Source of the DNA: Planctomycetota bacterium
Lineage (GTDB): Bacteria; Planctomycetota; UBA1135; UBA2386
DNA length: 64,000 nt
Direction of reading: 5' to 3'
Assembly: GCA_041178545.1 (NCBI GenBank)
Contig: JBEGVB010000009.1
Coordinates: forward strand, 33,276-97,275
How positions within the stretch are numbered: the first letter of the stretch is position 1; each line of letters starts with the position of its first letter. Under the pieces are notes generated by a model. The model worked only from the letters and a program-made list of their open reading frames with translations. It made no database searches and was not told where the DNA came from. Position numbers and translations under genes: made by a program. Below, piece by piece: positions 19,465 through 58,382 of this stretch.

Positions 19465-20717
19465 CAGCGCGGACCAGCTTGCCCGGTGCGGGGCATGCGC
19501 ACCAGCGCGAGGCAGCCGATGCCGACCAGCAGGGGGACCAGTTGTGCCAGCAGGGCCGCCTTCGGGCCGTACCCGTCCGCGACGAGTCCGTACACGGAGC
19601 TCCCCACGACGGAGAGCTTGACGGTGATCCCGTACAGCCCGAACCAGCGACCTGCCTCGGCCTCGGGTGCGAGGACCAGAACCAGCTTGCGTCCTGCGGT
19701 CCAGATGCCGCTGAGCCCGAACGCGCCGAGCGGGACCATGGTGAGGAGGTAGGCGAGCGGCGAGTTGCCGCCGAACCATGCCCCTGCAACCAGTGCGGCC
19801 AGCAGCAGGAGTGCGGACGTGCGCAGCACACCGAGCGGCGAGTGGTCCGTGCGCAGGCCCAGCAGCAGCCCGCCCAGCAGCGCGAGCACGTTGAGCGCAA
19901 GGCCTGCGAACTTGCCGAACCCGGCAAGGTCCATGCCCAGCGGCAGGTTCGCGGGACCGCTGCCCGCGAACACGCTCACCGTGTGGTCGTAGAAGAAGAG
20001 GATGGCCGTGTTCAGCACGTCGACGAGGAAGAAGTTGCCCAGCAGGAACCACGCGAGTGCGGGTTGCCGCGGCAGCTGGCGCAGGGTCCCGAGGACTGCT
20101 GCGAGGGTCGACGGTTGCGGTTGCACGGCGGCGGCGCGGCGGTCCCCGACCAGCACCATGCACGGCAGCGCGAAGACGAGGAACAACAGCGCCGCGTGCA
20201 CGAACCGCTGCGGTTCCCCCGCGGCTCCCACCGGCAGCAACAGCAGGACCAGGATGGTGCCGAGGTAGCCCACCCCCGTGCCGATGCCGCTCACCAGCCC
20301 CTGCCGCGAGGGCGCTGCCACCGAGGGCAGCAGCGCGTTGTAGAACAGCAGGGCCGCGTTGTAGCCGAGGTTCGCGAGCGCCAGCGCCGCCAGCATCGTC
20401 CATGCCCCGGCACCGCTGGCCCAAAGGGCCATGCTGCCGAGGCAGAGCAGCGTGGCCGCCGTCAGGTAGGTGCGGGTGCGTCGCGTCGCATCGCACCGTG
20501 CTCCCAGCCACGGGACGACCAGCGCGACGGCCACCATGCTTGCCGTCTGGGCGAGCCCGAGGCCCGACCTGCCGTGCTGTTCGGCGAACCACGGCGTGAA
20601 GAGGAAGGTGAGTGTGGCCGCGTAGACGGTGTTGCCGAGGTCGTACAGCACCCACGCCGTGGCCCGTGCGGTGCTCGCGCCAGGTCGTCCGGAAGGTCCT
20701 GACGCGGGTTGGGTCAC
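19464..20717 (-). CDS. MFS transporter (UMF1/ATG22-like)
   Basis: 417 aa, about 12 hydrophobic segments. WVLYDLGNTVYAATLTFLFTPWF resembles the UMF1-family N-terminus. Confidence 0.75.
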   Translation of the reverse strand: MTQPASGPSGRPGASTARATAWVLYDLGNTVYAATLTFLFTPWFAEQHGRSGLGLAQTASMVAVALVVPWLGARCDATRRTRTYLTAATLLCLGSMALWASGAGAWTMLAALALANLGYNAALLFYNALLPSVAAPSRQGLVSGIGTGVGYLGTILVLLLLPVGAAGEPQRFVHAALLFLVFALPCMVLVGDRRAAAVQPQPSTLAAVLGTLRQLPRQPALAWFLLGNFFLVDVLNTAILFFYDHTVSVFAGSGPANLPLGMDLAGFGKFAGLALNVLALLGGLLLGLRTDHSPLGVLRTSALLLLAALVAGAWFGGNSPLAYLLTMVPLGAFGLSGIWTAGRKLVLVLAPEAEAGRWFGLYGITVKLSVVGSSVYGLVADGYGPKAALLAQLVPLLVGIGCLALVRMPRTGQAGPR

Positions 20718-20849
20718 GAGGTCAGGTTAGGGGGGCGCATCCCGGGGTGGAACTGCGAGGGCGGGTTGCAGGGTGGCCCGCACCGGCAAGGCCATGACGA
20801 GTCCCGAGTCGTGTTCATCCCGTTGGTGCCCGTGAGTAGCATCCGGGTC

Positions 20850-24993: not shown

Positions 24994-25233
24994 AACGAGA
25001 GGCGGTGCGGTGACCTCGCGGAGGTCGCGGCAGGGGATCGGTATGCCCGGTGGGCGGGAAGTGGGCTGCGAAGGGCTGCGCAACGGGGGGGAGTGCGCGG
25101 CTGGACGACGGCGCGTAGGTGGGGAAGGACGACGCAATGGGTTCCGGGTGGTCCTGGACCGCTGCTTGTTTTTCCTACGCGCCGGCGGCGAACGTGGTGC
25201 GGACCGCAACCCGTTGTCTGGAGTAGTGCCGCC

Positions 25234-26136
25234 ATGGCCGACCCGTCCGTGAACCCCGTGACGAAACTGTGGGAGTTCTACGACCTGCGCAGTGCGTGGG
25301 ACGGCACGTCCGATCCTCGCGCAATTGCCGTCCCGCAGCACCGGCCCGATGGCTCGTTCGAGGTCGACGCCGGCACTGGTGTCGTCTTCGTCCTCTTGCC
25401 CGGCGGCATCTTCACCATGGGTGCACAGAGCATGGACCCTTCCGGTCCCAACCACGAGCCGTTCTCGAACCCCGACGAGGCTCCGCACGAGTTGGGCCTG
25501 GAACCGTTCCTGCTGGCACGGCACGAACTCACCAAGGCCCAGTGGGAGCGCTTTGCCGGTGCCCAAGAGACCGGGTGGACCCTCGGGGTCAGTTACAGCG
25601 GCGACGCGACCCCGATCCTGGCCTCTCATCCTGCGGACCTCATGGACTGGGACACCGCGGTGCGCTGGCTGCAGCGTCACGGGATGAACCTGCCGACCGA
25701 GGCCCAGTGGGAGTACGGCGCACGCGCCGGGACCAAGACACCGTGGTGGCCCGGTTCCCGCGCCGAGGACCTACAGGGTTGTGCGAACGTGCACGACCGC
25801 AGTTCGTTCCAGCGGAGCCCGCAGTTGGGACAGCCCACCCCGATCGACGACGGCTTCCGCGCCATCGCCCCAGTGGGCAGTTTCCGGGCCAACCCGTTCG
25901 GCCTGTTCGACGTGCACGGCAACGTCTGGGAATGGTGCATGGACGGCTACGGGCCCTCTGGCACCCAGCGCGACGGTGACGGGTTGCGCACCGACGGCGC
26001 GAGGCACACGCGTGTGATCCGCGGCGGCGGCTACTCCGACGGCGCCCACCGCGGCCGTTCTGCGGCCCGGAACCTCTTCTCCTCGACGGTGCGCAATGGC
26101 TACCTCGGCCTCAGGGTTGCACGATCTCTGGAGTGA
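25234..26136 (+). CDS. stand-alone FGE-sulfatase (SUMF1-like) domain protein, paralog of the kinase C-terminal module
   Basis: ATG at 25234, 300 aa. NPVTKLWEFYDLRSAWDGTSDP..., LPTEAQWEYGARAG, NPFGLFDVHGNVWEWC, RGGGY. Start uncertain (the ORF opens at 25093). Confidence 0.7.
   Translation: MADPSVNPVTKLWEFYDLRSAWDGTSDPRAIAVPQHRPDGSFEVDAGTGVVFVLLPGGIFTMGAQSMDPSGPNHEPFSNPDEAPHELGLEPFLLARHELTKAQWERFAGAQETGWTLGVSYSGDATPILASHPADLMDWDTAVRWLQRHGMNLPTEAQWEYGARAGTKTPWWPGSRAEDLQGCANVHDRSSFQRSPQLGQPTPIDDGFRAIAPVGSFRANPFGLFDVHGNVWEWCMDGYGPSGTQRDGDGLRTDGARHTRVIRGGGYSDGAHRGRSAARNLFSSTVRNGYLGLRVARSLE
25250..25310 (+). repeat. 61-nt block identical to 22510-22570
   Basis: See the paired repeat. It begins 16 nt after the proposed start codon of the FGE-only gene. 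Confidence 0.9.
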
Positions 26137-26201: not shown

Positions 26202-27656
26202 ATGGCTCGACCTGCACCCGCGTCCCGCCCCACGCGCCGCCGTTTCCTCGCGGGCGCGGCCGCTGCGTCGGCGACGCTGGTCCTGCAGGGCTGTGCTTCC
26301 GCGCGCGCGCGCCGCGTGCTGGGGGCCAACGAGGCGCTCCGGCTGGGGGTGGTGGGGCTCAACGGCCGCGGCAGCGAACTGGTCGGTTCGTTCCGCAGGG
26401 TGCCTGGCGTGCGCATTGCCGCGCTGTGCGACGTGGACCGCGCAGTGCTGGACCGTGCAGCGGTCGCCGCAGCCGGCCGCGGCGACCGGGTGGAGGTGTT
26501 CACCGACTACCGCCGGATGCTCGACTCGGGCAGCGTCGACGCCGTCGTCATCGCCACGCCCAACCACTGGCACGCACTCATGGGCGTGATGGCATGCGAG
26601 GCGGGCCTCGATGCCTACGTGGAGAAGCCGGTGAGCCACGACGTGTGGGAAGGCGCGCAACTCGCTGCCGCAGCGGAACGCCACGGGCGCGTGGTCGCGT
26701 GCGGCACCCAGTGCCGCAGCCACAGCGGCATGGCGGAGGCGATCGCGTTCGCGCGCAGCGGCGAGCTGGGTGCCATGAAGCTGGCGCGCGGGCTGTGCTA
26801 CAAGCGTCGTGCGTCGATCGGTCGGGCGGACGGGCCGCAGGCCCTTCCTGCAACGGTGGACGCAGACCTCTGGTTCGGGCCGGCACCCGTGGTGCCCGTG
26901 CAGCGCAGGCGGTTCCACTACGACTGGCACTGGCAGTGGGCGTACGGCAACGGGGACCTCGGCAACCAGGGCGTGCACCAGATGGACCTGTGCCGCTGGG
27001 CGGTGGGGGCGGAGGAACTGCCGCAGACGGTGCTCTCGGTCGGCGGCCGGCTCGGCTACGACGACGACGGCGAGACGCCCAACACCCAGCTGGTGTACGC
27101 GGACTACTCGCCGGTGCCCATCCTCTTCGAGGTGCGTGGACTGCCCGAGCGCGCGGGCAGCGAGAAGCTGGACAGCCACCTCGGTGCCCAGATCGGGCTC
27201 ACGCTGCACTGCGAGCACGGCACGGTGGTGGTCCACAGCTACACGGCCGGCTTCGCGCTGGACAACGCCGGCAAGCGCATCCGTGAGTTCAAGGGCGGTG
27301 GCGACCACTACGCCAACTTCGTGGCGGCCAGCCGTGCCGGCGACCCGCGGTTGCTGGCAGCAGACGCGCGCGCCGGGCACCTCAGCGCTGCGCTGTGCCA
27401 CCTGGGCAACGAGTCGGTGCGCCGGGGCAGGAGCCAGGGTCCCGAGGCAGTGGCCGCGGAGGTCGAGGCCAACGCGCACCTGCGCGAGGCCTTCGGTCGC
27501 ATGCGCACGCACCTGACCGAGAACGGCATCGCATGTCTCGGGCTCGAACGGTCCGACACGCTGTGGATGGGCGCACTGGCCAGGCCGGCACAGGACGAGA
27601 CGCTGTGGCGGCCACGCGGGTACCGGGCACCCTTCGTGCTGGAGGAACAGGCATGA
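26202..27656 (+). CDS. Gfo/Idh/MocA-family oxidoreductase with TAT signal
   Basis: ATG at 26202, 484 aa. SRPTRRRFLAGAAAASATLVLQGC, then LRLGVVGLNGRGSE...ALCDVD (Rossmann) and EKPVSH. Confidence 0.9.
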   Translation: MARPAPASRPTRRRFLAGAAAASATLVLQGCASARARRVLGANEALRLGVVGLNGRGSELVGSFRRVPGVRIAALCDVDRAVLDRAAVAAAGRGDRVEVFTDYRRMLDSGSVDAVVIATPNHWHALMGVMACEAGLDAYVEKPVSHDVWEGAQLAAAAERHGRVVACGTQCRSHSGMAEAIAFARSGELGAMKLARGLCYKRRASIGRADGPQALPATVDADLWFGPAPVVPVQRRRFHYDWHWQWAYGNGDLGNQGVHQMDLCRWAVGAEELPQTVLSVGGRLGYDDDGETPNTQLVYADYSPVPILFEVRGLPERAGSEKLDSHLGAQIGLTLHCEHGTVVVHSYTAGFALDNAGKRIREFKGGGDHYANFVAASRAGDPRLLAADARAGHLSAALCHLGNESVRRGRSQGPEAVAAEVEANAHLREAFGRMRTHLTENGIACLGLERSDTLWMGALARPAQDETLWRPRGYRAPFVLEEQA

Positions 27657-30184
27657 ACCCGCGCTGGCGCCGGCTCCTCTGTGCTGCACTCGCGTCGGCT
27701 GGGCCGCTGTTCGCACAGCAGGGCGACCGCAAGGACGAGGTGCAGCAGGACCTGCCCCCGGACCTCGCGGTGCCGCCTGCCTCGGTGCGCAGCCCCGCCG
27801 AGGAACTTGCCACGTTCCGGGTGCAACCGGGCCACCGCGTCGAACTGGTGGCCGCCGAGCCGCTGGTGGGCGACCCCGTGGTCGCGCGCTTCGACGAGTT
27901 CCACCGGCTGTGGGTGGTGGAGATGCGCGGTTACATGCCGGACGTGGACGGGCGTGGCGAGGACCAGCCCGTGGGGCGCATCGTGGTGCTGCAGGACGAA
28001 GACGGGGACGGCAGGATGGACCGTTCCACGCCGTTCCTCGAGCAGCTGGTGCTCCCTCGCGGGGTGCTGCCGCTGCGCGGCGGCGCGCTCGCGATCGTGC
28101 CACCCAACCTCTACTGGTGCCCCGACGCGGACGGCGACCTGCGCGCCGACCGCATGGAGCCCGTTGGCGACGGCTTCGATGCCGGCACCACCAACCCCGA
28201 GCACTCCGGCAACGGGCTGCTGTGGGGCCTCGACAACCGGGTCCACCTCGCGAACCACCCGTGGTCGTACCGGCGCAACGCGGACGGGACGTGGGAGCGG
28301 CTCCCGGCTGCCGGTCACGGCCAGTGGGGCCTGGCGCAGGACGACGTCGGCCGGCTGTTCTTCAACTACAACAGCGACTGGCTGCGCGGCGACCTCGTCC
28401 CCGGTGCCCATGCCGTGGCGCGGCGCGGGCTCGGCGGCCTCGGCGGCACCAACGTGCAGCTCACCGCGGACCAGTCCGTGTTCCCGGCGCGCGTGACCCC
28501 GGGTGTCAACCGCGGCTACCAGCCCGGCATGCTGGTGGACGGGGTGCTGCAGCGGAACAGTGCCGTGTGCGGCGTGGCCGTGTACCGCGGCGGCGTGCAC
28601 CCGGAGCTGCAAGGTGACGTGTTCGTGTGCGAGCCCGCCGGCAACCTGGTGCGTCGCTTCAAGGTCCAGGGCGACGACGGCGCGCTCCAGGCCGCCAACC
28701 CGCACGGCAAGGCCGAGTTCCTCGCCTCGGTGGACGAGCGCTTCCGCCCGGTGGACCTGACCATGGGGCCCGAGGGCGCGCTGTACGTGGTGGACATGTA
28801 CCGCGGCGTGATCCAGCACAAGAACTTCGTCACGACCTTCCTGCGCAAGCAGGTCCTGGCCCGCGGCCTCGAGCGGCCCATCGGCCTCGGCCGCATCTGG
28901 CGTGTCGTGCCCGAGGACGTGGGCGCGCTGCAGCGTCCGGAGCCGCTGGGTGCGATGACCGACGCGCAACTGGTGGCAGGGCTCGCCTCCACAAGCGGGT
29001 CGCGCCGCGACACGGCGCAACGGTTGCTGGTCGAGCGCCGCGCGGGCGCGGTGGCACCGACGTTGCGGGCGATGGTGCGCGACGCAAGCGTGCGCACCAC
29101 GACGCGCATCCACGCCCTCTGGGTGCTGGAGGGCACGGGTGCCTTGCTGCGCGACGACGTGCTGTGGGGGCTGCACTCGGACGAGCCATGGCTGCAGGCA
29201 CATGCACTCCGCGCTGCCGCCCCATGGCTGCGCCGCGGGGACCGCCCGGTGGTGGAGATCGCGCTCCTTGCCGCCGCCGAGGGCGCGCGCGTGGTGCAGC
29301 GCCAGCTCGCGCTCTCGCTGGCGGCGGTGCCGCAGCCGCGGCGCGCCGACGCACTCGCCCGGCTTGCCGGGTGCGACCTCGGCGACGCCTGGCTCCGCTC
29401 GGCCCTCGCTGCGGGCGCCGACGGGGCGGAGGAGTCGTTCGTGGCCGCCCTCGGCCGTGCGTGGGGCACTGCCGAGCAACCCGGCCGTGCCGACCTGCTG
29501 CGCCAGCTCGCACGCGGTCTCACGGCCTCGCGCGCGGCAGGGCGGCAGGACCGGTTGTTCTCGCTGGCCGCCGGTGCCCCTGCCGTGTGGCAGCAGCAGG
29601 CGCTGTTGCGCGGGGCGGTGGACGCGCTGCCCAAGGGCACTGCCCGCGCCGGCTGGATGACCTTCGTCAGCACGCCCACGGGACTCGCTGCCGTGCAGCG
29701 ACAGGGCGACAAGGAACTGGGCAAGCTCACCACCGAGCTGCTCTCGGCCGTGGCGCTCAAGACCCCCGAGGTGGAGGTCGACGCCGACGCATCCGACCCG
29801 GCGGTTGCCGCACTCGTGTCCGCCGGCAGCAGGGTGTACGCCGCGCACTGTGCTGCATGCCACCAGCCCGACGGGCGCGGCATGCGTGGGCTGGCGCCCC
29901 CGGTGCGGGACTCGGAGTGGGTGACCGGCGACCCGGGCAGGCTCGCCCGCATCGTGCTGCACGGTGTCCGTGGGCCGATCGAGGTGGCAGGCGAGTCCTG
30001 GGACCTCGAGATGCCGGCGCAGAAGTTCCTTGCCGACAGTGACCTCGCGGCCGCCCTCACCTACCTGCGTCGCTCGTGGGGCCACCGGGCCACGGCCGTG
30101 CGGGACGTGGACGTGGCGCGGGAGCGCGAGGCAACCAAGGACCGCAAGGGGCCCTGGACCGCGGCGGAACTCGGCGGGCCGTAG
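27653..30184 (+). CDS. PVC-type membrane-bound-dehydrogenase-domain / HEAT / CxxCH heme-binding protein
   Basis: ATG at 27653 overlaps the upstream stop (ATGA) and follows GGAGGAACAG. 843 aa. Signal peptide, [22 protein letters not shown]...[12 protein letters not shown]-domain, C-terminal [11 protein letters not shown] heme motif. Confidence 0.85.
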
Positions 30185-33043: not shown

Positions 33044-34519
33044 ATGTCCGGCACCAACTCACGTCACTACCTCGGCTTCGACGTCGGCACGCAGGGCACC
33101 AAGGCCCTGCTCGTGGACGCGGTCGGCAAACGCGTCGTCGCACGCGCAGCCGTGTCCCACGGCTTGCTCGAGGGCCTGCCACCAGGGGCCGCGGAACAGC
33201 ACCCGCACACGTGGGTCGATGCCGTGCAGGCAACGGCCCGGCAGGTGCTGCAGGGCGTGGACCCGGCGAGCGTGCACGGGGTCGGCGTGTCGGGCCAGCA
33301 GCACGGCTGCGTGGTGCTCGACGCGAGCGGTGCCGTGGTGCGGCCGGCCAAGCTCTGGTGCGACACCTCGACTGCCGCCGAGGCGCGCGAGCTGTCGGTT
33401 GCGCTGGGACGCGCGGTTCCCACCGGGTTCACCGCCAGCAAGTTGACCTGGATGAAGCGGCACGAGCCGGCGAACTGGCAGCGCGTGCGTTCGGTGCTGC
33501 TGCCACACGACTACGTGAACTTCCGGCTCACCGGTCGCATGGTGATGGAGGCAGGGGACGCGAGCGGCACCGGCTGGTTCGACGTGCAGCAGCGGCGTTT
33601 CGACGCCCGCGCCATGGCGGCCGTGGACGTGGGGCTCGCGGGCCTGCTGCCGCCACTCGTCGGTGCAGGCGAGCCAGCCGGCGTCCTCGACGCGGCTGGT
33701 GCGCGGTTGCTCGGCTTGCGCGAGGGCACCCTCGTCTCCGCAGGCGGTGGCGACAACATGATGAGCGCCATCGGCTCCGGTGCCACGCGGCCCGGCGTGG
33801 TGGTCTGCAGCCTCGGCACCTCGGGCACGGTGTTCACCTGGAGTGCGACTCCCGTGGTGGACCCCGCCGGACTCATCGCGCCGTTCTGCAGCTCCGACGG
33901 CGGCTGGCTGCCGCTGTTGTGCGTGATGAACCTCACGGGCGTGACCGAGGAGGTGAAGGCTGCGTTCGGGGCGGACCACGGAGCCCTCACCGAGGCCGCG
34001 TCGCGTGTGGTGGCCGGGTGCGACGGCCTGTTGTGGATGCCGTTCCTCCAGGGTGAGCGCGTCCCTGACCTGCCCACGGCCACCGGCACGCTGCTCGGCA
34101 TGCGGCCGGGCCTGCTGCGCGCAGGCCACCTCTACCGGGCGGCACTCGAGGGCACCTCGCTCAACCTCGGCTGGGGTGTCGACCGGTTGCGAGGGCTGGG
34201 CATCGGCGTCGGGGAGGTGCGACTCGTGGGCGGTGCTGCACGCAACGAGCTGTGGCGCAAGATCCTTGCTGCCGTGCTGGGTGCGCGCGTCGTGCCCCTC
34301 GCGGAGCCGGAGTCCGGTGCGCTGGGCGCGGCACTGCAGGCCCTGTGGACCGACCGGCGCCGCAGCGATCCACGCGCAGACCTCACCGAGCTTGCGGCAC
34401 CGTTCGTCCAGCTCGCACCCGGGGCCGTGGACCCCGACCCTGCCCTCGTCGCGACCTACCGGGACCTGTCCGTCCGCTACGCGCGCGAGGTGGAGCGGCT
34501 GTCAGCGGTGCAGGGCTGA
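33044..34519 (+). CDS. xylB: xylulokinase (FGGY family)
   Basis: 491 aa. YLGFDVGTQGTKALLVD, GVSGQQHGCVVLD, GGGDNMMSAIG, GGAARNELWRKILA. Confidence 0.85.
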   Translation: MSGTNSRHYLGFDVGTQGTKALLVDAVGKRVVARAAVSHGLLEGLPPGAAEQHPHTWVDAVQATARQVLQGVDPASVHGVGVSGQQHGCVVLDASGAVVRPAKLWCDTSTAAEARELSVALGRAVPTGFTASKLTWMKRHEPANWQRVRSVLLPHDYVNFRLTGRMVMEAGDASGTGWFDVQQRRFDARAMAAVDVGLAGLLPPLVGAGEPAGVLDAAGARLLGLREGTLVSAGGGDNMMSAIGSGATRPGVVVCSLGTSGTVFTWSATPVVDPAGLIAPFCSSDGGWLPLLCVMNLTGVTEEVKAAFGADHGALTEAASRVVAGCDGLLWMPFLQGERVPDLPTATGTLLGMRPGLLRAGHLYRAALEGTSLNLGWGVDRLRGLGIGVGEVRLVGGAARNELWRKILAAVLGARVVPLAEPESGALGAALQALWTDRRRSDPRADLTELAAPFVQLAPGAVDPDPALVATYRDLSVRYAREVERLSAVQG

Positions 34520-35413
34520 GGCTGCTGCTGCCGCGGGGTCGACGTCCGCGCCTGCGAGCACCAGCGTGTAGCGCAGTTGCAGCGGTTGTTGGGGGTGCAC
34601 GCGTGCCGTGAAGGTCGAGCCGAACCGTCCATAGGGCCTGGAGCTGTAGCGGTTGGGGCGCGGGTTGGTCGGGTGGTCGACGTGCACCACGGTGACGGGG
34701 CCGCCCTCCAACGGCAGCACGGCGGCCGTCCAGTCGGCATGGGTCCAGATGTCGTTGCCCTCGTCCGTGGCCCCCTCGGGTCGCAGGTACGAGACCTTGG
34801 GCTGGTCCTTCTCGGCAAAGCGTTGCAGTGCGCGGAACTGGACGCCTGCATGGTGCGGGTCGCCGTCCAGCAGCACCTCGTCCGTCGTCGCGCGCAGTTC
34901 CACGTCGAGGTCGAGCGCAGTCGTGGTCGCATCGACCTTGCGCGCGCGCAGGCCGCGCACCTCGGTCACGAGGTGACGGCCCGCGCCGTCCCGCCAGGCG
35001 ATCTCCGCGACCTGCCACTCGGGCCCCTTGCCGTGCTCGGTTGCAGGCACCCAGCGCACGAGCCGCAGGGTCTCGCCCTTGCGACAGTGCCAGAAGTCCC
35101 ACACGGGCGCCTTCTCGTCCGCCGCAAGGCGCACGCGGTTCCAGCCGAGGAACAGCCCGCGGTGGTGCGGGTAGTCGCCGCCCTGGGCCTTGGTCAGCAG
35201 GCGGCCGTCCGGACTCCACACCATGTGGAAGACCTTGCACGTCTCCTCGGCACGCGCAGGCTCGTAGGCTGTCATGGCGCGTGCGACCAGTCGGCCGTCG
35301 AGCCGCACGTCGCCGGGCCGGACCTCGTCCTCGGCCCGTCCGGCTGCACTCGTGCACGCACCGAGGGCCAGCAGGAGCAGCGGGAGCAGGGCGCGCGCGG
35401 GACGGCGTTGCAT
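34502..35413 (-). CDS. PmoA-family (PF14100/DUF6807-like) lipoprotein
   Basis: ATG at 35413 gives MQRRPARALLPLLLLALGAC. DYPHHRGLFLGWNRV, DFWHC and DPHHAGVQFR resemble PmoA-family proteins. Its 3' end overlaps xylB by 18 nt (convergent). Confidence 0.7.
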   Translation of the reverse strand: MQRRPARALLPLLLLALGACTSAAGRAEDEVRPGDVRLDGRLVARAMTAYEPARAEETCKVFHMVWSPDGRLLTKAQGGDYPHHRGLFLGWNRVRLAADEKAPVWDFWHCRKGETLRLVRWVPATEHGKGPEWQVAEIAWRDGAGRHLVTEVRGLRARKVDATTTALDLDVELRATTDEVLLDGDPHHAGVQFRALQRFAEKDQPKVSYLRPEGATDEGNDIWTHADWTAAVLPLEGGPVTVVHVDHPTNPRPNRYSSRPYGRFGSTFTARVHPQQPLQLRYTLVLAGADVDPAAAAASALHR

Positions 35414-35458
35414 GGTCGGAGAGGATGCGCCGCGGTGCACCGGACCGCAACCGGCTCC

Positions 35459-36775
35459 TCAGCCGTGCACGAGGATGCGCACGTCGCGCACGTTGGTGCC
35501 GGAGGGACCGGTGACCACCGTGTCGCCCAACGTGTGCAGCGCCGGGTGGGAGTCGAAACCCTCCAGCGCGGCATGCACGTCGATCCCCAGCGCAGCGGCC
35601 CGGTCCAGGGTCGTGCCGTCGGCGACGGCGCCTGCCGCAGGCGAGTTCCCGTCGATGCCGTCGGTGCCCGCACTCAGCACCGCAATCGGTTCCCCACGGA
35701 CCAGCTGTGCAGATGTGAGGACGAAGTGCTGGTTGCGTCCGCCGCTGCCGTGCTGCGCGGGCAGTCGGACGCGCACCTCACCGCCGGCAACGAGCGCAAC
35801 GGGCTTGCCGTGCTCGCGGCGCAGCGCGCGAAGTCTTGCAAGGAGTGCACTCGCTGCTTGGCTGCACTCCATCTCCGACGTAGCGTGGTCCACTTCGCAG
35901 TGCAGGCCCCGGGCGGTGGCCAGCGCTGCGAGCCCAGCGGTTGCACTGCGCTCGTCGAGCAGGCAGTGCCACGAACTGCGCGCGAATGCGCGGTCGTGCT
36001 GCTTCGGCGTCTCCGCAGCGCGCCCCGCTGCCGCAGCTGCGAACAGCCCGCGGACCGAGGCCGGGAGGCCTTCGCGCAGTCCGTTCTCGTCGACGACGCG
36101 CAGTGCATCCTGCCACGTCGTGGCGTCGGGCATGGTGGGGCCCGAGGCAACCGCGGAGGGGAGCCCCGGCGGGACATCGCTCACGTACAGCGTGACCTGG
36201 CGCGCGGGGGCCGCCCGCAGTGCCAGCCTGCCTCCCTTCACGCCCGAGCAGTGCTTGCGCACGCAGTTGATCGCATCGATGGGGGCGCCGCACCCGACCA
36301 GTGTGCGGTGCAGCACGCGCAAGTCGTCGAGGGAGGTCTCCGGGACCAGCGGGCGTTCGAGGATGGCAGAGCCACCGCCCGAGACGAGGAACACCACGAG
36401 GTCGTTCTCGCCCGCGCCGCCGAGCAGTGCGAGCGTGCGCTCGGCAGCCGCCGTGCTGCCGGCGTCGGGGACCGGGTGGCCACCCGGCCGCAGCAGCAAC
36501 GGCTCCAGGGGAGCCGTGTCGCCGGCAGGTGGTGCACAGACGCCCTGCACCGTGCAGCCGTGGAACAACGGCAGGGCTGCGGATGCCATGGTGCGCGCTG
36601 CCTTGCCGAAGGCGACGAGGAAGACGCGCTGCACCGCTGCGAGGTCGACTGTCTCGCCTGCAGGCAGCTGCAGCACCGTCCCGGCGCGGGCCACTTGGCG
36701 GAGCAGCGCCGCGCCCGGGTCCAGTTGCACCAGCAGTTCGCGGAACATCGACGCGAGTCCCGCGCGATGGGTCAT
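35459..36775 (-). CDS. glycerate 2-kinase / MOFRL-family (DUF4147+MOFRL)
   Basis: 438 aa. VAFGKAARTMA, LVSGGGSAILE, GGEVRVRL...GSGGRNQHFVL, SAGTDGIDGNSPAAGA, TGPSGTNVRDVRI. Confidence 0.85.
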   Translation of the reverse strand: MTHRAGLASMFRELLVQLDPGAALLRQVARAGTVLQLPAGETVDLAAVQRVFLVAFGKAARTMASAALPLFHGCTVQGVCAPPAGDTAPLEPLLLRPGGHPVPDAGSTAAAERTLALLGGAGENDLVVFLVSGGGSAILERPLVPETSLDDLRVLHRTLVGCGAPIDAINCVRKHCSGVKGGRLALRAAPARQVTLYVSDVPPGLPSAVASGPTMPDATTWQDALRVVDENGLREGLPASVRGLFAAAAAGRAAETPKQHDRAFARSSWHCLLDERSATAGLAALATARGLHCEVDHATSEMECSQAASALLARLRALRREHGKPVALVAGGEVRVRLPAQHGSGGRNQHFVLTSAQLVRGEPIAVLSAGTDGIDGNSPAAGAVADGTTLDRAAALGIDVHAALEGFDSHPALHTLGDTVVTGPSGTNVRDVRILVHG

Positions 36776-37746
36776 GCGAGCACCGACGGGTTGACGGGGT
36801 TGAGCGGCTGCTTGCCCGTCAGCACCGCCACGCAGTTCTCTGCCGCGAGCGTGCACATGCGCTGCCGCGTCGCATGGGTGGCACTGCCGACGTGCGGCGT
36901 GAGCACGACGTTGGGCAGGGCGAGCAGGTCCGGGTCGACCGCGGGCTCGCGCTCGAACACGTCGAGTCCCGCGCCCGCGATCATCCGCTCGGAGAGTGCG
37001 GCTGCCAGCGCCGCCTCGTCCACGACGGGGCCGCGGCTGGTGTTGAGCAGGATGGCCGACCTGCGCATGCGCGAGAGCTGCTCGATGCCGATCATGCCGC
37101 GGGTCTCGGCATTGAGCGGGCAGTGCACCGACACGAAGTCCGACTGGGCCAGCAGGGTGTCGAGCGGCACGTGGATGGCGCGGAGCTCCTGTTCGACCTC
37201 TGCGCTCGCACGGGTACGCGACGCGTACAGCACCTTCATGCCGAATCCGAGTGCGCGGCGCGCCACGGCCCTGCCGATGCGGCCGAATCCCACGATGCCG
37301 AGCGTGCGGTGCGAGACGTCTGCACCCGCAAGCAGGTCGATGTCCCATCGGTTCCACCTGCCCGACTTCAGGAAGCGTTCTGCCTCCGGCACGCGGCGCG
37401 CGGTGGCGAGCAGCAGCGCCCACGTGAAGTCGGCCGTGGCCTCGGTGAGCACGTCGGGCGTGTTGGTCACGACGATGCCGCGCGCCGTGGCCGCCTGCAC
37501 GTCGATGTTGTCGTGGCCGACCGCGACCTGGCTGATCACCTTGAGCCGCGGTGCGGACGCGATCACGCGCGCAGTGACCGGGTCGGTGAGCTGGCACACC
37601 AGGCCGTCGGCATGCTGCAACCGCTGGACCAGCTGGTCCTCCGTCATCACCTCGAGCGTGTCCTTGTAGTCGACGGCCACGGACTCGTTGAGGACGGCGA
37701 TGGCTGCCGGGTAGACCCGGCGGGTCACGAGGACGCGCGGCTTCAT
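36772..37746 (-). CDS. D-isomer-specific 2-hydroxyacid dehydrogenase (glyoxylate/hydroxypyruvate reductase-like)
   Basis: 324 aa, at the C-terminal end of ORF 36772..39990. GIVGFGRIGRAVARRA, LNTSRGPVVDE, DVFEREP, TPHVGSAT. ATGA overlap with the glycerate kinase start. Confidence 0.85.
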   Translation of the reverse strand: MKPRVLVTRRVYPAAIAVLNESVAVDYKDTLEVMTEDQLVQRLQHADGLVCQLTDPVTARVIASAPRLKVISQVAVGHDNIDVQAATARGIVVTNTPDVLTEATADFTWALLLATARRVPEAERFLKSGRWNRWDIDLLAGADVSHRTLGIVGFGRIGRAVARRALGFGMKVLYASRTRASAEVEQELRAIHVPLDTLLAQSDFVSVHCPLNAETRGMIGIEQLSRMRRSAILLNTSRGPVVDEAALAAALSERMIAGAGLDVFEREPAVDPDLLALPNVVLTPHVGSATHATRQRMCTLAAENCVAVLTGKQPLNPVNPSVLA

Positions 37747-38945
37747 GCCTTGCCCCCGAGGAAGGCATTGAGGCGCTGTTGCGCGAGGGCGATGTCCCCG
37801 AGTGCGCCGCACGCGACCGACAGTTGCGCGCACTCGGTGTAGTGGGCTGCATCCCGGCAGCGGTCCTCGCGGTTCACGAGCATCGGGTTCGACTGCAACC
37901 CGTTGAGCCATGACAGGAAGGCGAGCCCGGCCTTGTAGTGCTGGGTGGGGGCGCAGAAGACGTGCCGGCCCAGCGCCTCGCACGGGGTCATGATGTCGAG
38001 GAAGCGCCGCGCGTCCCCGCGGGCGAGGTGGCGCAGCGCGAGCCCGGCCGGGATCGCGATGCCGTCGAGGATGCCGAGCAGGGCGTGGCTGAAGTCGCCC
38101 ACGGCCACCCTGCGGTTGCCGATCGTGACGTGGCGCTCGACCACGGGAGGTCTGGTCGGTGCAGGTCCCTGCGGGTCGCCGCCGAGGATGAGCCTGCCGA
38201 AGTGGAAGTCGTCGCCGGTCAGCACGACCTGGTCCCGCGGCAGCAGCTCGCGCCGGACCCGCAGCTCCATGGCGTCGTCCAGCAACGAGAGCTTGCAGCC
38301 GCGCACCTTGGCGGGGTCGAGCGCGAGGATGCGCTCGAAGGAGCGGCCCGGGAAGTAGCCCTTCAGCACCGGCAGGAACATCTCGCCGAGCCAGTGCAGG
38401 AAGACGGGCCCCTCGACCTGCCGCAGGACCGAGCCGTACACGTCGACGTACTGGTCCTCGGTGGCCCCGTTGAGGGTCAGCCACGGCATCGGCAGGATCA
38501 TCGGCCAGCCGCCCGCCTGCTGGATGAAGCGCACCTGGTGCACGACCCCGTCGACGAGGTCGGCCGTGCCGCGCACCTTGTCCAGGTGGTCGGTGCCTGC
38601 GCCGGCGACGAAGCCGTTGCGCAGGCCGAGCCTGCCGCAGCGCGTGATCAGTTGCTGGGCCGAGGCCCACCCGAGTGCGAAGCGCTGTGCCGTGTCCATG
38701 GCCTCGGCGATGCCGAAGCCGTTGGCGTCGAGGAACCGGCGGATCCCCATGGTGGCTTCCCAGTCCACGAACTGGGCGATCTCCGCGCCGCTGCCGGGCT
38801 GCGCCATCGAGTGGGACGCGTGGGCGTAACCCGGCTGCAGCACCACGTGTGCGGCCGCGAAGCACAGGCGGACGGGCTCGGGTTCGGGCCCGGCGAGCGC
38901 GGCACGATGGGGGGCGAGGACGTCGGTCTGTTGCAACTGCGTCAC
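37743..38945 (-). CDS. DUF993-family protein (aldolase-type TIM barrel, function unknown)
   Basis: 400 aa. AAAHVV, IAEAMDTAQR, LHWLGEMF, KLSLLD, LTGDDFHF, HALLGILDGIA and APTQHYKAGLAFLSWLNGLQ match my recollection of the DUF993 pattern. 4-nt overlap with the downstream gene. Confidence 0.65.
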   Translation of the reverse strand: MTQLQQTDVLAPHRAALAGPEPEPVRLCFAAAHVVLQPGYAHASHSMAQPGSGAEIAQFVDWEATMGIRRFLDANGFGIAEAMDTAQRFALGWASAQQLITRCGRLGLRNGFVAGAGTDHLDKVRGTADLVDGVVHQVRFIQQAGGWPMILPMPWLTLNGATEDQYVDVYGSVLRQVEGPVFLHWLGEMFLPVLKGYFPGRSFERILALDPAKVRGCKLSLLDDAMELRVRRELLPRDQVVLTGDDFHFGRLILGGDPQGPAPTRPPVVERHVTIGNRRVAVGDFSHALLGILDGIAIPAGLALRHLARGDARRFLDIMTPCEALGRHVFCAPTQHYKAGLAFLSWLNGLQSNPMLVNREDRCRDAAHYTECAQLSVACGALGDIALAQQRLNAFLGGKA

Positions 38946-38951: not shown

Positions 38952-40373
38952 TCAGTCCTTGGTGGTGAAGCTCTCGAGGTAGCGTGGCACGGACTGGATC
39001 GCGGTCCACGCGAGGAACGCCAGCAGGCCGATCGTGATGAGCAGCATGGCGAGGCGCCAGGCGAGGCCAACTGCGCCGCGCGGCGTGTCGGAGCCGAGGT
39101 AGGCGCGCTTGCCCTGCAGCACCAGGAAGCCGAGCCAGGTGACGGGCAGCAGCAGGCCGCAGAACACGCTCGTGGGCACCGCGAGCCACACGGCGTACTC
39201 GCCCCACACGAGCGGCGCGAGGCAGCCGGGTGCCGGCAGCAGGCTCCACAGCCGCTGCTTGCGCGAGCCGAGTTCGCAGCCGAGGAACTCCATGGCCACG
39301 AAGCTGCAGACGAGCATGTGCAGCGTGATGGTGGAAATCGCCATCGACAGCATGCCGAGGTCGAACACGAGTCGGCCGGCCATCGGGCCCATCACGTCGC
39401 CGAGCACGCGCGCGCAGTCCGCCACGGCCGCCTTCTGGGTGATCGCGGTGCCGCTGCGGTGGATGGTGTTGGCGGCTGCGATGGTCATCAAGCCGGTCGA
39501 CAGCACGTAGGGAACGAGCATGCCGAGCCCGAGGTCCCAGCGCGCGAGGTGCCGGTGCTCGCGACCCCAGCCGCGCGCGAGCAGGCTGTAGGGGAACAAG
39601 AACACCATGTTCACACCCACGGCGGCCGCGAGGCCCGAGGCGATCAGTTCGTACGCATCGGTGTTGCCACGTTGCTGCGGGATCCCCGGCACGAAACCGC
39701 GCAGCACGGCATCCCAGTCGGTGTCCGTCGACAGCACCACCCACAGCAGGGAGAACACGATGGCCCACACCATCCACTTGAGGATGCGCTCGTACGCGCG
39801 CACGAGCCTCGGGCTGCGGCCGTAGAGCATCGACAGCGCGATGGCGATGCAGAGCACCACGAGGCTGCAGGCCATGGGCGGCACGCCGCCGATGCCCACG
39901 GCATCGCACGCGTCGACCATGGCGTTGGCGGCGAGGTTGTACTGCGGCAGGTGCCAGACCACCGATGCGACCAGCGCGCCGATGGCCCACGCACCGGCGA
40001 AGAACCTGCCGGCATGCGTGGCCATGGCGTGCATGGGCCGCTCACCGGTGCTGAGCGTCTGGTGAGCGACGGCTGCCAGCATGACGATGCCGAGCAGCAT
40101 GGCGAGCGGCGCCACCCAGAGCAGTTCGTAGCCATAGGCCGCGCCGGCGAACAACGCGGCGCTCGCGGTGCCTGCGCCCAGCGTCATGGCCGACTGCATG
40201 TAGCCCGGGCCGATCAGTCGCAGGTAGGTGCGGGCGCGCGTGAGGAAGGGCGCGTGTTCCGCGGCCGTGAGCAGCTTGCGCTCGGCGGCCAGCGCCACGG
40301 GATCCGGCGGCTTGGCCATGCGCAGGCCCTTCTGGACCGAGCCGAAGTCGGGCTGTGCGGGAGGGGGGCTCAT
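38952..40373 (-). CDS. Nramp-fold transporter lacking the canonical DPGN / MPH metal-site motifs
   Basis: ATG at 40373 overlaps the upstream stop. 473 aa. LIGPGYMQSAMTLGAGTASAALFAGAAYGYELLWV aligns to Nramp TM1 (GPGFL..AYMDPGN..AGA.FGY.LLWV) with LGAG in place of DPGN. Confidence 0.75.
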   Translation of the reverse strand: MSPPPAQPDFGSVQKGLRMAKPPDPVALAAERKLLTAAEHAPFLTRARTYLRLIGPGYMQSAMTLGAGTASAALFAGAAYGYELLWVAPLAMLLGIVMLAAVAHQTLSTGERPMHAMATHAGRFFAGAWAIGALVASVVWHLPQYNLAANAMVDACDAVGIGGVPPMACSLVVLCIAIALSMLYGRSPRLVRAYERILKWMVWAIVFSLLWVVLSTDTDWDAVLRGFVPGIPQQRGNTDAYELIASGLAAAVGVNMVFLFPYSLLARGWGREHRHLARWDLGLGMLVPYVLSTGLMTIAAANTIHRSGTAITQKAAVADCARVLGDVMGPMAGRLVFDLGMLSMAISTITLHMLVCSFVAMEFLGCELGSRKQRLWSLLPAPGCLAPLVWGEYAVWLAVPTSVFCGLLLPVTWLGFLVLQGKRAYLGSDTPRGAVGLAWRLAMLLITIGLLAFLAWTAIQSVPRYLESFTTKD

Positions 40374-41800
40374 GGGGCCATCCCCTGGCGGATCGCCTTC
40401 ACCTTCGCGGCCTCGGGGCGCGCCTTGTAGAACGGGTCGAGCGGGAAGCACCCGCTCACCATGCCGTTGCGCGGCCCGGTGGTGCAGTCGCTGAAGGTGC
40501 GGCAGATGCGCTTGCGCTGCAACTCTCGACCTGCGCACAGGTCGGCCGGGAGTTCCGGGTAGGAGAGCAGCAGGCGCCCGAGACCGACGAAGTCCACGCG
40601 CCCGGCGTCGAGTTCCGCCTGTGCGACGTGCGGCAGCCACTCCTGCAGGTAGGTGTAGCCGGTGCCGACGACGTGCAGGCCGGGGCACGCTGCCTTGAGC
40701 GCGGCCGTGGTGTCGAGGTGCACCTGCACCATGGTGAGCGGGTCCACCGGCGGCAGGTAGCCGTCGGAAGGCGGGTAGACGGCAGGTCGCTGCAGGTGGG
40801 GGTTCCAGTAGGGCGAGCCGAGCGTCACGTTGAGCAGCGTCACGCCCAGCGAGTGCGCATGGGTTGCGAACCGGACTGCCTCGCCGCGGTCCATGGTGGC
40901 GGGGGTGGTGCCGAAGGCAAAGTGGTGGCGCGCACCGTCGAACCCGTCGGCGGCCATCGGCCGGCCCACGTTGGTCGCAGGGTCTGCCTCGAACGGCAGC
41001 ACGTCGCCCGCACTGAGCCGCACGCCGAGTCCCAACCCGGGGCACTCGGCACGGATGGCCTCCACGATGCGCGTGAACAGCCTGGTGCGGTTGTCGAAGC
41101 TGCCCCCGTAGGTGCCGTTGCGCGTGTGCGAGGCCAGCACCTCGTGCAGCAGGTAGCCGTGGCAGCACTTCACGTCGACGAAGTCGAAGCCGGCGCGGTG
41201 GGCCAACCTCGCCGCCTGCACCATCCGCTCGCCGATCGCCTCCAACTCACCGTCCGTGAGGAGTGCGGTCGAAGGGTCGAGCCTGTACTTGCGCGCGAGC
41301 AGTGCGTGGTGGTGGGCGATGCGGGGGGCGAGCGGTCCGTTCGGACGTGAGAACCTGCCGGAGTGAGTGAGCTGCAGGCCGATCGCCACCGGCTCGCTGG
41401 CGACGCCGACTTCCTCGCGCCCGGACAGCAGGGTCCGCCGCAGTGCGACGAGGTCTGCCTCGCTGTTCGCACCGAGGTGCAACTGGTTCGGGTTCGCGCG
41501 TCCGTCGGCCGTGACGCTGAACGCCTCGCCGCCCCAGACCAGGGATGCGCCGCTGCGGCCGAAGTTGCGCCAGCGACGCAACGTGAGGTCGGTCGGCCTG
41601 CCCTCGGGGGTGCCGTCCCAGCCCTCCATCGGGTGCGTGCAGAACCGGTTCGCGAGGCGCCTGCCCAACACCTCGACCGGTCGGGTCCATGCGGCACCAG
41701 TCCCTGTTGCCTCTGTTGCCTGCATCCCAAGGCCCAGTCCGCGCGCGTGGGACCGGAAGTCGTCGAGGGTGCGGAAGTGGCCCGGGGAGGGAAAGTCCAT
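40370..41800 (-). CDS. Old-Yellow-Enzyme-family NADH:flavin oxidoreductase-like protein with Cys-containing C-terminal extension
   Basis: ATG at 41800, 476 aa. NRFCTHPMEG, QLTHSGR, FDFVDVKCCHGYLLHEVLS..TRNGTYGGSFDNR, VGLGRLLLSYPELP. Start uncertain. Confidence 0.75.
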   Translation of the reverse strand: MDFPSPGHFRTLDDFRSHARGLGLGMQATEATGTGAAWTRPVEVLGRRLANRFCTHPMEGWDGTPEGRPTDLTLRRWRNFGRSGASLVWGGEAFSVTADGRANPNQLHLGANSEADLVALRRTLLSGREEVGVASEPVAIGLQLTHSGRFSRPNGPLAPRIAHHHALLARKYRLDPSTALLTDGELEAIGERMVQAARLAHRAGFDFVDVKCCHGYLLHEVLASHTRNGTYGGSFDNRTRLFTRIVEAIRAECPGLGLGVRLSAGDVLPFEADPATNVGRPMAADGFDGARHHFAFGTTPATMDRGEAVRFATHAHSLGVTLLNVTLGSPYWNPHLQRPAVYPPSDGYLPPVDPLTMVQVHLDTTAALKAACPGLHVVGTGYTYLQEWLPHVAQAELDAGRVDFVGLGRLLLSYPELPADLCAGRELQRKRICRTFSDCTTGPRNGMVSGCFPLDPFYKARPEAAKVKAIRQGMAP

Positions 41801-41933: not shown

Positions 41934-42413
41934 TTGCCAGCGAAGCAGCCCAACCCCAACGCAGTCCACCTCACCGTCCCCAGCACCTTGCGGAGCGCGC
42001 GCTTCTACCGCGAGAAGCTGGGTTTCCGCATGGCGGAGGCGCATCCCTCCAAGGACCGCCCGACCTGGGCCTGCATGGTGCTCGGCAGCCAGGCAGTGAT
42101 GCTCGGCCAGCTGCCGTCGCTCGACGACGCGCGGAAGCAGGGTCTCGACCACGAGGAGATCGAGTTGCTCAAGAGCGACGCCAAGAACCTCGCCCGCGGC
42201 AAGGCCGGGCTCGGCGTGCACTGCTTCGTGCACGTCGAGGACGTCGACGCCATGTTCCGCAGGCTCAAGCGCAAGCGGGTCAAGTCGCTCACCGCGCCTC
42301 GCACGCGCCCCTACGGCTGGCGCGAGTTCCAGGTCGAGGACCTGGACGGCTACCGGCTGGTGTTCTACTCGGCGGCCACGCCCGGCGAGGGGACCGGGAC
42401 TGCCGCAGGCTGA
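41934..42413 (+). CDS. VOC (glyoxalase/bleomycin-resistance fold) family protein
   Basis: 159 aa, apparent TTG start. VHLTVPS..SARFYREKLGF and PYGWREFQVEDLDGYRLVFY are typical VOC beta-alpha-beta modules. Confidence 0.65.
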   Translation: MPAKQPNPNAVHLTVPSTLRSARFYREKLGFRMAEAHPSKDRPTWACMVLGSQAVMLGQLPSLDDARKQGLDHEEIELLKSDAKNLARGKAGLGVHCFVHVEDVDAMFRRLKRKRVKSLTAPRTRPYGWREFQVEDLDGYRLVFYSAATPGEGTGTAAG

Positions 42414-42440: not shown

Positions 42441-43859
42441 TCAGTCCTCGAGGACCCAGGGGAGGGCTTGGTCCAGTGCAGCTGCGACCTCGTGGTCGAC
42501 TGCATAGCCCCTGCCCAGCAGTGAGGCGCACTCGACGCGCCCCGCGCCGATGCGCAGCCGCACGCTGCCGTCCGCACGTGCCTCGTACAGATCAGGGTGC
42601 GCGGCGAGCGCTGCCGAAGCGACGTGGTCCGGCAGGTGGTCCAGGCCGCGGAAGTAGTGGTGCCCGTTGCGCTCCACGTGCGCGAGCCCGAGGCAGCACA
42701 CGGTGAGCAGGTCCTGCTGCAGTGCCACGACCGGCAGGTTGGTGAGGTCCTCGGCGGAGAGGAACGCACCGTTGCCGCGCGCAGCACAGAGGCCGTGGTT
42801 CGCGAGCGCACGGAAGAACCCCTTGCAGTTCTTCACCGAGATGCCGCGGTAGCCCGTGTCGAGCGCGTTGCGGAACGCCTCGGGACCGTCGTCGGCCTCG
42901 TCGACCAGCAAGGGGGCGTGCCGGGACACCAGCGGCAGGTCGCGCTGCGCGTCCGCCGAGAAGCTCAGCTGCCTCGGCAACGGCTGCTCGACGGCGACGA
43001 TCCGCGAGACCAGTGCGCGCCCCATTGGGGCCGCTGCCGTGCGGTCCAGCACCTCGGCGAGGGCCGCCAGCTCCGCGTACTGCTCGTTGCCGTCGAGGGT
43101 GATGCGCACCGTGCCGATGCGGTCGCCGAGTGCAGTTGCGATCGAGAGCAGCCGCGCGTGGTCCGCGTCGGGGCCAGCACCCACCTTCACCTTCAGCCAG
43201 CGGATGCCGCGCTGGTCCAGCTCGTCCACGAGGCAGTTCGGCTCGCCGTCCCCGGGACCTGTGCCGGCCTCCGCCCGCGACAGTGGGTCGAGCATGCCCA
43301 CCGTGTGGCGCACCGCCACCGCGGTCGGCAGGGTGGTGGGCAGCAGGGCAGGCAGGCGCCAGCCGCGGAGCTCGGGGTGGAAGCGTTCGGGCTCGAACCG
43401 GAAGAGGTCCTGCTGCAACGCGGACCACAGGTTGCGGTTGGCGATGCGGCACGCTGCATCGAGGACCGCCCGTTCGACCAGCGCTGCCCCGAAACCCCGC
43501 ACCAACCGGTCCGGTGCACCGTGTTCGACGGCGCCCGCCGTGCTCCGCCAGGCCTCGAAACAGAGGTCGAATGCCGTCGCATGCCGGTGGTGGGCGAGGA
43601 GTGCCTTGCCGGCTTCGGCTGCTGCATGGCGCAGGTCGGACTGGTCCTGCTCCACGCTGCGGGCAGGGTCCTTGCGGAACCACTTGGGCACCAACAGGTC
43701 CGAGGCGAGCCCGACGGCCGTGCGCCCGTCCACCGACTCCAGTTCCACCCGCGCATGGAACAGGGGGGCCTGGTGCAGGGTCACCGCGCCGAAGCGGAAC
43801 GGCATCCGGGTCGTGCACGGCACCTCGGCAAACCGCACGGACAGGACGCGGAACTGCAT
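42441..43859 (-). CDS. enolase-superfamily enzyme (MR/MLE-like), atypically long
   Basis: ATG at 43859, 472 aa. LKVKVG (KxK), ITLDGNEQY, AVEQPLP, LLVDEADDG and ISVKNCK fit metal-ligand and base positions of the MLE-type barrel. Confidence 0.7.
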   Translation of the reverse strand: MQFRVLSVRFAEVPCTTRMPFRFGAVTLHQAPLFHARVELESVDGRTAVGLASDLLVPKWFRKDPARSVEQDQSDLRHAAAEAGKALLAHHRHATAFDLCFEAWRSTAGAVEHGAPDRLVRGFGAALVERAVLDAACRIANRNLWSALQQDLFRFEPERFHPELRGWRLPALLPTTLPTAVAVRHTVGMLDPLSRAEAGTGPGDGEPNCLVDELDQRGIRWLKVKVGAGPDADHARLLSIATALGDRIGTVRITLDGNEQYAELAALAEVLDRTAAAPMGRALVSRIVAVEQPLPRQLSFSADAQRDLPLVSRHAPLLVDEADDGPEAFRNALDTGYRGISVKNCKGFFRALANHGLCAARGNGAFLSAEDLTNLPVVALQQDLLTVCCLGLAHVERNGHHYFRGLDHLPDHVASAALAAHPDLYEARADGSVRLRIGAGRVECASLLGRGYAVDHEVAAALDQALPWVLED

Positions 43860-56183: not shown

Positions 56184-56195
56184 GGCAACTCGGGA

Positions 56196-58223: not shown

Positions 58224-58382
58224 GGTGCGGGACGGTGGCGGGAGGACCTTGACGGTCGACCGTGGGTCGGTGCGGAGCCTAGCGCCCGGGCACCGGCCCA
58301 TGGGACGTTTCGGCGACAGTTTCCTTCCCGCCTGTCGGCGCGCTCCCGCCACCCTCCGTCCCCGGGCGCGAACGGCTCCGGT

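Follow-up and report, generated by a model that had tools for sequence, protein, structure and literature searches.

What does a permease of the Nramp fold carry when the residues of the canonical metal site have been replaced and its gene is translationally coupled to genes of metabolic enzymes? The question is raised by a gene of a Planctomycetota bacterium (assembly GCA_041178545.1), located in a stretch of 64,000 nucleotides of contig JBEGVB010000009.1 (positions 33,276 to 97,275), which is called the window here and from whose first letter all coordinates are counted (Table 1). A first-pass annotation of the window had assigned the gene product to the Nramp fold, had noted the loss of the metal-coordination motifs, and had argued from the gene's position for an organic substrate in place of Mn or Fe. 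The analysis reported here shows that the canonical metal site and proton pathway of this permease are replaced by glycines and neutral polar residues, a replacement shared by a large family, and leads us to think, on balance and with modest confidence, that what the permease imports is a polar organic carboxylate of small size, and probably a sugar acid or a related hydroxy acid.

The open reading frame of the permease comprises 473 codons uninterrupted by stops, and the periodicity of GC content at third codon positions identifies it as the coding frame. The product matches the Pfam Nramp profile PF01566 with 106.9 bits (cut-off 29.8), covering profile positions 4-352 of 357, and barely passes the NCBIfam model NF037982, 'Nramp family divalent metal transporter' (53.7 versus 50 bits). 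An AlphaFold2 model built on 72 homologues has a mean predicted local distance difference test score (pLDDT) of 92.8 and contains LeuT-type breaks in transmembrane helix (TM) 1 at L65-G66 and in TM6 at V252-G253. When this model was searched with Foldseek, structures of DraNramp ranked first (TM-score 0.82 by target, E 1e-12, 22% identity). By profile, predicted structure and fold search, the permease is a member of the Nramp superfamily at the level of fold, as had been proposed from the sequence, and it is the sole PF01566 match in its genome, which is 92% complete.

Alignments by phmmer and by profile to BfraNramp, DraNramp and EleNRMT all set the residues T-L-G-A-G-T of TM1 on (I/M)-D-P-G-N-(W/F), so that the canonical Asp, Pro, Gly and Asn correspond to L65, G66, A67 and G68, respectively. 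The first-pass annotation had placed a Leu-Gly-Ala-Gly replacement of DPGN at exactly these codons, and both the codons and all of the alignments agree with it. It had also stated that TM6 is devoid of Met-Pro-His; the sequence there is AAVGVNM in place of A-x-x-M-P-H, Pro-His is absent, and an MPH motif was obtained from none of the alignments. The register of TM6 differs by one or two residues among alignments, with the canonical Met position falling on either G253 or N255; the helix break in the model favours the register in which G253 stands for Met and N255 for His. Directly after the TM6 motif position there is a nearly invariant methionine, M256, which the earlier annotation did not mention. 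In TM3, the acids of the proton pathway (DraNramp numbering) are replaced as well: E124 by Leu, D131 by H141 and E134 by Q144. None of the features of canonical Nramp/SLC11 proteins (DPGN, AxxMPH, TM3 proton-pathway acids) is present, and the profile alignments did not restore the Asp, Asn or Met ligands, a restoration that had been named beforehand as telling against the claim.

These replacements are not peculiar to one protein. Among the 72 homologues, which are 24-94% identical to the permease, the TM1 sequence GPGY[LM]QSAMTLGxG[TS] and the TM6 sequence AAVG[IV]NM[VL]FLYPYS are nearly invariant. L65 and G66 never vary, and T64, G68, N255 and M256 are kept in at least 96% of the homologues, down to 24% identity. 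Because the replacement residues are conserved family-wide, the loss of ligands does not represent decay, and the reading as a pseudogene or a decaying MntH was rejected; judged from these alignments, the motif replacement is a family trait under selection, neither decay nor chance. The conserved acids of the family (D24, E31, D154, E195, D219, D280, E362 and D429) are all located at helix ends or in loops, according to helix limits taken from the AlphaFold2 model. The conserved residues of mid-membrane segments are neutral and polar: Q60, T64 and T69 in TM1; S137, H141, Q144 and Y145 in TM3; N255 and M256 in TM6; and S347, T348 and H352 in TM8. These four helices form the substrate site in carriers of the LeuT fold. 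We infer that the permease probably does not bind Mn2+ or Fe2+ in the manner of Nramp.

At least six classes of TM1/TM6 motifs can be told apart among the PF01566 proteins of this phylum's genomes: MDPGN/MPH (canonical), NDAGG/APW (NRMT-like), IGPGT/VPYN, IGPGS/TTF, VGAGD/GGVGG, and the class of the window permease, for which we have coined the name TLGxG. In a maximum-likelihood tree the TLGxG sequences form a single clade apart from all other classes (SH-aLRT support 100; stem length 1.12 changes per site); the window permease has both motifs and lies within this clade. On this phylogenetic evidence, TLGxG is a distinct clade of 'Nramp-related' proteins. It has four parts: the subclade of the window gene, a subclade that contains fusions to ApbE, a 'long' subclade of proteins of about 585 amino acids with an insertion after TM7 and an additional C-terminal helix, and two basal sequences. 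One genome encodes two adjacent, divergent family members, one of the long type and one of the short (locus L133, G369:C13:322600-338975). Four of the motif classes (IGPGT/VPYN, IGPGS/TTF, VGAGD/GGVGG and TLGxG; Planctomycetota loci L092-L120) have no characterised member that could be linked to them.

A word-indexed search, in which 8000 candidates were scored, returned 1272 homologues of the permease; the best 120 of these are 53-94% identical to it, and their source names are those of manganese or divalent-metal transporters. An exhaustive search of representatives at 50% identity gave 137 clusters at E<1e-30, and a scan of one genome per species found both motifs in at least 579 species. 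The carriers of both motifs are mostly Planctomycetota, Acidobacteriota (Thermoanaerobaculia, Holophagales and 'Ca. Multivorans') and Myxococcota, nearly all of them metagenome-assembled genomes. In a sample of 401 genomes of the phylum, 69 have a TLGxG member, 28 of the short kind and approximately 41 of the long kind. A look-up of the permease in the Protein Atlas returned only automatically named Nramp clusters.

The permease gene is the second of six co-directional genes on the minus strand, preceded by a gene for an OYE-like flavoenzyme and followed by genes for a DUF993 protein, a D-2-hydroxyacid dehydrogenase, a DUF4147/MOFRL protein and a DUF6807 protein. The junctions of this operon consist of three ATGA overlaps, one gap of 6 nucleotides and one of 18. 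The arrangement around the permease is as the first-pass annotation had described it: the TGA of the OYE-like gene overlaps the ATG of the permease in an ATGA at 40373-40370, the TGA of the permease is separated by 6 nucleotides from the GTG of the DUF993 gene, and both neighbours are confirmed by their Pfam domains. The start of the OYE-like gene was picked by alignment with homologues that begin about five residues before PGHF; the protein retains the His pair, in HGYLLHE, and the Tyr of the YGGS..NR motif. The DUF993 protein is related to an uncharacterised protein of solved structure (4dnh), and its relatives have the PGAP name 'dihydrodipicolinate synthase family protein'. The best NCBIfam matches of the DUF4147/MOFRL protein are archaeal glycerate 2-kinases.

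Upstream of the operon, beyond a glyoxalase/VOC-family gene that was found at the corresponding place in just one other locus (L012), lies a minus-strand gene whose product has no match in Pfam or NCBIfam even at E 10. Its conserved residues (KxK at 223/225, D256, E291, D320, K343/K346) and its model (pLDDT 92), for which all top Foldseek matches are MR/MLE-type enzymes with TM-scores of about 0.75 by target, indicate that it is an enolase-superfamily enzyme. Convergent with the operon are genes for an FGGY kinase, a protein of unknown type, a xylose-isomerase-like TIM barrel and a DUF7133-cytochrome c protein. A search with Rfam gave no riboswitch, whether for FMN, Mn, Mg or another ligand, near the permease or in 12 loci of the long type.

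Table 1. Features of the window referred to in the text.
Feature	Coordinates	Strand	Remarks
Nramp-related permease	38952..40373	-	473 amino acids; 11 predicted TM helices
Codons of L65-G66-A67-G68 (canonical Asp-Pro-Gly-Asn positions)	40170..40181	-	CTG GGC GCA GGC at 40181-40170
OYE-like flavoenzyme	40370..41800	-	~476 amino acids; Oxidored_FMN E 3.5e-17
DUF993 protein	37743..38945	-	Pfam E 2.8e-85; GTG start
D-isomer-specific 2-hydroxyacid dehydrogenase	36772..37746	-	ATGA overlap on DUF993 stop
DUF4147/MOFRL protein, glycerate 2-kinase-like	35459..36775	-	ATGA overlap on dehydrogenase stop
DUF6807 protein	34502..35440	-	Last of the co-directional run; 18 nucleotides after kinase stop
Enolase-superfamily enzyme	42441..43859	-	472 amino acids; assigned by conserved residues and predicted fold
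Glyoxalase/VOC-family gene	41934..42413	+	Separates enolase-like gene from OYE-like gene
DUF7133 and cytochrome c protein	27287..30184	+	PVC-type heme-binding, CxxCH; faint GSDH (glucose/sorbosone dehydrogenase) match below Pfam cut-off
SAM-I/IV riboswitch	1651..1761	-	51.8 bits, exceeds gathering score
Open reading frame with AAA_5 ATPase domain	89..1540	-	Next downstream of the riboswitch
FGE-sulfatase domain gene	20703..23399	+	Formylglycine-generating enzyme-like
FGE-sulfatase domain gene	24994..26136	+	Formylglycine-generating enzyme-like
Two adjoining large paralogous genes	54141..58382	-	CarboxypepD_reg repeats

The conservation of this context was assessed in the 80 loci nearest to the permease. 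An OYE-like gene is present in 43 of them (39 directly upstream, four about 4.5 kb upstream on the opposite strand), an enolase-like gene in 36 and a DUF993 gene in 34. Loci with the cassette come from Planctomycetota, Acidobacteriota, Gemmatimonadota and Myxococcota, some of them rearranged in order; in loci of Myxococcota and 'Deltaproteobacteria' the enolase-like gene is directly upstream of the permease and the OYE-like gene is on the opposite strand. Since the linkage has been kept there despite rearrangement of the gene order, it is maintained and does not merely reflect inheritance. The genes for the dehydrogenase, kinase, DUF6807 protein and FGGY kinase reappear in just one or two of the 80 loci. 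Thus, the conserved partners of the permease are the OYE-like, enolase-like and DUF993 genes only, and the dehydrogenase, glycerate kinase and DUF6807 genes are lineage-specific additions. Among the 401 genomes of the phylum sample, DUF993 occurs in 24, and in 17 of these it is at most 3.5 kb from a TLGxG family member (in two of the 17, divergent to a long-type gene). DUF993 is also found beside glycerate kinase and oxidoreductase genes on rhizobial (S. meliloti) and Roseibium plasmids, without a TLGxG permease; the term DUF993 was not found in the literature search. Genes for DUF7133-cytochrome c proteins lie near the permease or the cassette in three arrangements and phyla (the window; L002, L004, L016 and relatives).

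Canonical Nramp/MntH/SLC11 proteins (DraNramp, BfraNramp, ScaDMT, DMT1) share with the permease the PF01566 domain, an 11-helix LeuT fold with unwound TM1 and TM6, and the flanks of the TM1 motif, GPG before it and GY.LLWV after it. They differ in possessing DPGN, MPH and the proton-pathway acids, at about 22% identity and in a separate clade, and in that canonical Nramp genes stand alone under metal control whereas the permease gene sits inside an enzyme operon. NRMT, typified by EleNRMT, resembles the permease in having an Nramp-related fold, Gly for Asn at the last position of the TM1 motif and no proton pathway (PMC8806188), but it keeps the TM1 Asp (N-D-A-G-G) where the permease has Leu; NRMT-like genes of the same phylum belong to another clade, and the permease is 17% identical to 7qia. 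The third comparison is with YcsG/MntG of B. subtilis and PxpT of C. glutamicum, the 'G-motif 3' group, which likewise have no canonical motifs and are encoded within an enzyme operon (pxpABC). The permease did not match the YcsG chain at E<=1 in PDB sequence searches, and only the fold search reveals the relationship (model 9a52_A, 17% identity); the operon partners differ, there are no pxp genes in the window, and none were found beside genes of the VGAGD type when a motif class matching YcsG was sought. The substrate of YcsG/PxpT is itself disputed, with genetic evidence for uptake of 5-oxoproline (PMC13274462) opposed to a claim of Mn2+ import (PMC10448178).

That motif-less relatives of Nramp exist is already known. 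Cellier divided PF01566 into Slc11, an outgroup and NRMT (PMC9606685). A Gaudet-lab preprint of January 2026 describes 'Nramp-related proteins' as paraphyletic; in them DPGN and MPH have given way to varied residues, and the proton pathway to non-polar ones. It calls all of their groups 'entirely uncharacterized' except the NRMT-like group and 'G-motif 3', which contains B. subtilis YcsG (PMC12873925). The TLGxG family fits that description of the uncharacterised groups, a match by description and not to a named group, and the preprint text that we read has no mention of its operon linkage, its ApbE fusions or its long form. In the literature searched there was no description of the TLGxG motifs, of a cassette of DUF993, a long OYE form and this enolase branch, of the long form of the permease, or of the ApbE fusions.

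Does the altered site still accommodate a cation? A hydrated divalent ion (Mg2+, Mn2+ or similar) might be held by backbone carbonyls together with Thr, Asn, Gln and Met, and be imported as a cofactor for the co-encoded enzymes; those of the enolase superfamily need Mg2+. The near invariance of M256 and N255 at the TM6 break and the score just above the NF037982 threshold agree with such a role, as does the fact that the only characterised motif-divergent relatives carry cations: EleNRMT transports Mg2+ (PMC8806188), and YcsG was renamed MntG after measurements of Mn (PMC10448178). ApbE, the fusion partner in the sister subclade, likewise needs Mg2+ (PMC12052999). The site itself, however, has no acidic residue in it or near it, the four acids having given way to Leu, Leu, His and Gln, whereas even EleNRMT retains its TM1 Asp. 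Mg2+ is abundant, and an importer specific to one operon would rarely be needed; neither the window nor the 12 long-type loci gave a metal riboswitch; and a gene that is translationally coupled to those of three enzymes in several phyla typically encodes a substrate permease. Cation transport is therefore considered unlikely.

Import of an organic carboxylate is the reading that we prefer. Members of the enolase superfamily abstract the alpha-proton of a carboxylate, and because enzymes of this superfamily act on carboxylates, the substrate is probably a carboxylic acid. A sugar-acid-like compound is the best guess because genes for a hydroxyacid dehydrogenase and a glycerate 2-kinase lie at the end of the operon, because DUF993 accompanies glycerate kinase elsewhere, and because putative periplasmic dehydrogenases and sugar ATP-binding cassette (ABC) systems recur nearby. 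The organic substrate put forward in the first-pass annotation thus holds as the best available inference, supported by the clade-wide motif trait, the lost proton-pathway acids, the conserved linkage and a partner from the enolase superfamily, whose members act on carboxylates. A precedent is provided by the Nramp-related PxpT/YcsG, which is needed for growth on 5-oxoproline (PMC13274462).

In the mechanism that we propose, the substrate would bind in a pocket bounded by the Gly-rich segments where TM1 and TM6 unwind and by invariant side chains that are neutral and polar, which may comprise Q60/T64/T69 of TM1, H141/Q144/Y145 of TM3, N255/M256 of TM6 and S347/T348/H352 of TM8. Three enzymes would then act on it in the cytoplasm, namely that of the enolase superfamily, the OYE-like protein as an ene-reductase, and the DUF993 protein as a TIM-barrel enzyme; in the genome of the window, the 2-hydroxyacid dehydrogenase and the glycerate 2-kinase could then channel the carbon into lower glycolysis. 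The DUF7133-cytochrome c proteins encoded nearby resemble dehydrogenases and may be the source of the substrate in the periplasm.

Several observations weigh against import of a carboxylate. The conserved methionine M256 remains beside the TM6 break, and Mn2+ import has been claimed for YcsG, a relative that is also without the motifs (PMC10448178). About half of the nearest loci, mostly from Thermoanaerobaculia, have no cassette; in these the permease gene is flanked on one side by a divergent DUF7133-cytochrome c gene and on the other by an ABC importer of the rhamnose/ribose type. No recurrent neighbouring gene was found for the long subclade, which would fit a housekeeping solute better than a niche carbon source. 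Finally, the motifs of TM1 and TM6 hardly differ among the subclades, the members fused to ApbE included, which points to a single substrate for the whole clade, with no evident connection to the cassette.

The direction of transport is not readable from sequence, and the solitary long subclade and the glyoxalase/VOC gene present in the cluster here and in L012 would also suit an exporter of a toxic intermediate or product of the pathway, or a transceptor that serves the operon as a sensor and transports nothing. The permease carries no regulator or signalling domain, however, and a location between enzymes of catabolic type that end in a glycolytic funnel is the layout of an uptake system. 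We regard export or sensing as the least probable of the explanations weighed here.

The ApbE fusions raise a further possibility. Five of the 150 best representatives (P0136, P0140, P0161, P0183 and P0143) have a complete ApbE domain at the C-terminus (Pfam E 1e-63 to 1e-81), and in the tree these fusions belong to a sister subclade that excludes the window permease. Judged by the positive loops, the N-terminus is inside; as there are 11 helices, the ApbE domain of the fusions is predicted to be periplasmic, which is where ApbE works. Neither the fused genes (loci L086-L088) nor the unfused members of this subclade have a conserved partner on their contigs, which are mostly short. Nothing relevant was found in a search for literature linking ApbE and Nramp. 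According to a 2025 review, the route by which flavin adenine dinucleotide (FAD) reaches ApbE is obscure (PMC12052999).

Permeases of this clade could, then, move flavins or nucleotides, exporting FAD to the periplasm for ApbE or taking up the flavin mononucleotide (FMN) or adenosine monophosphate released there, with the OYE-like flavoenzyme as the client in the window. The fusions and their predicted topology, the near identity of binding-site motifs between fused and unfused proteins, the obscure route of FAD and the translational coupling of the permease to an enzyme of FMN type are in keeping with this idea. Nevertheless, the window permease lies outside the subclade of the fusions, its genome encodes an ApbE separately on another contig (C116), no FMN riboswitch was found in the window or the 12 other loci, and the fused genes have no conserved flavoprotein neighbours. 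A cytoplasmic OYE requires no dedicated flavin permease, the enolase-like and DUF993 partners would be left unexplained, and the fusion may signify membrane tethering alone. A flavin or nucleotide substrate therefore seems quite improbable for the window permease. Slimmer still is the chance that the whole TLGxG clade carries one flavin nucleotide, with the ApbE-fused members providing the route of FAD to the periplasm and the window permease serving an OYE-type module; if this were true, the clade would provide the first case of an Nramp-fold protein that transports a cofactor other than a metal, and an open question of protein flavinylation would be answered.

Other features of the window were noted. 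Its sole Rfam match is a SAM-I/IV riboswitch, and the next open reading frame downstream encodes an AAA_5 ATPase domain, which is unusual in that position. Two FGE-sulfatase domains are encoded within 5 kb, one of them fused to a Ser/Thr protein kinase, and elsewhere two large paralogous genes composed of CarboxypepD_reg repeats adjoin each other.

The permease and well over a thousand of its relatives bear the automatic names 'Nramp family divalent metal transporter' or 'manganese transport protein'. The name of a metal transporter is very probably wrong for the whole TLGxG clade, and inferences of metal homeostasis drawn from it for Planctomycetota, Acidobacteriota and Myxococcota would therefore mislead. 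The fusions of the sister subclade bear on the route of flavin to the periplasm. The clade also joins DUF993, an unclassified branch of the enolase superfamily and a long form of OYE, the roles of which are unassigned, into one testable pathway. Thus, the TLGxG clade may be viewed as a natural experiment in which the scaffold of a metal-ion carrier has been re-tooled for another substrate.

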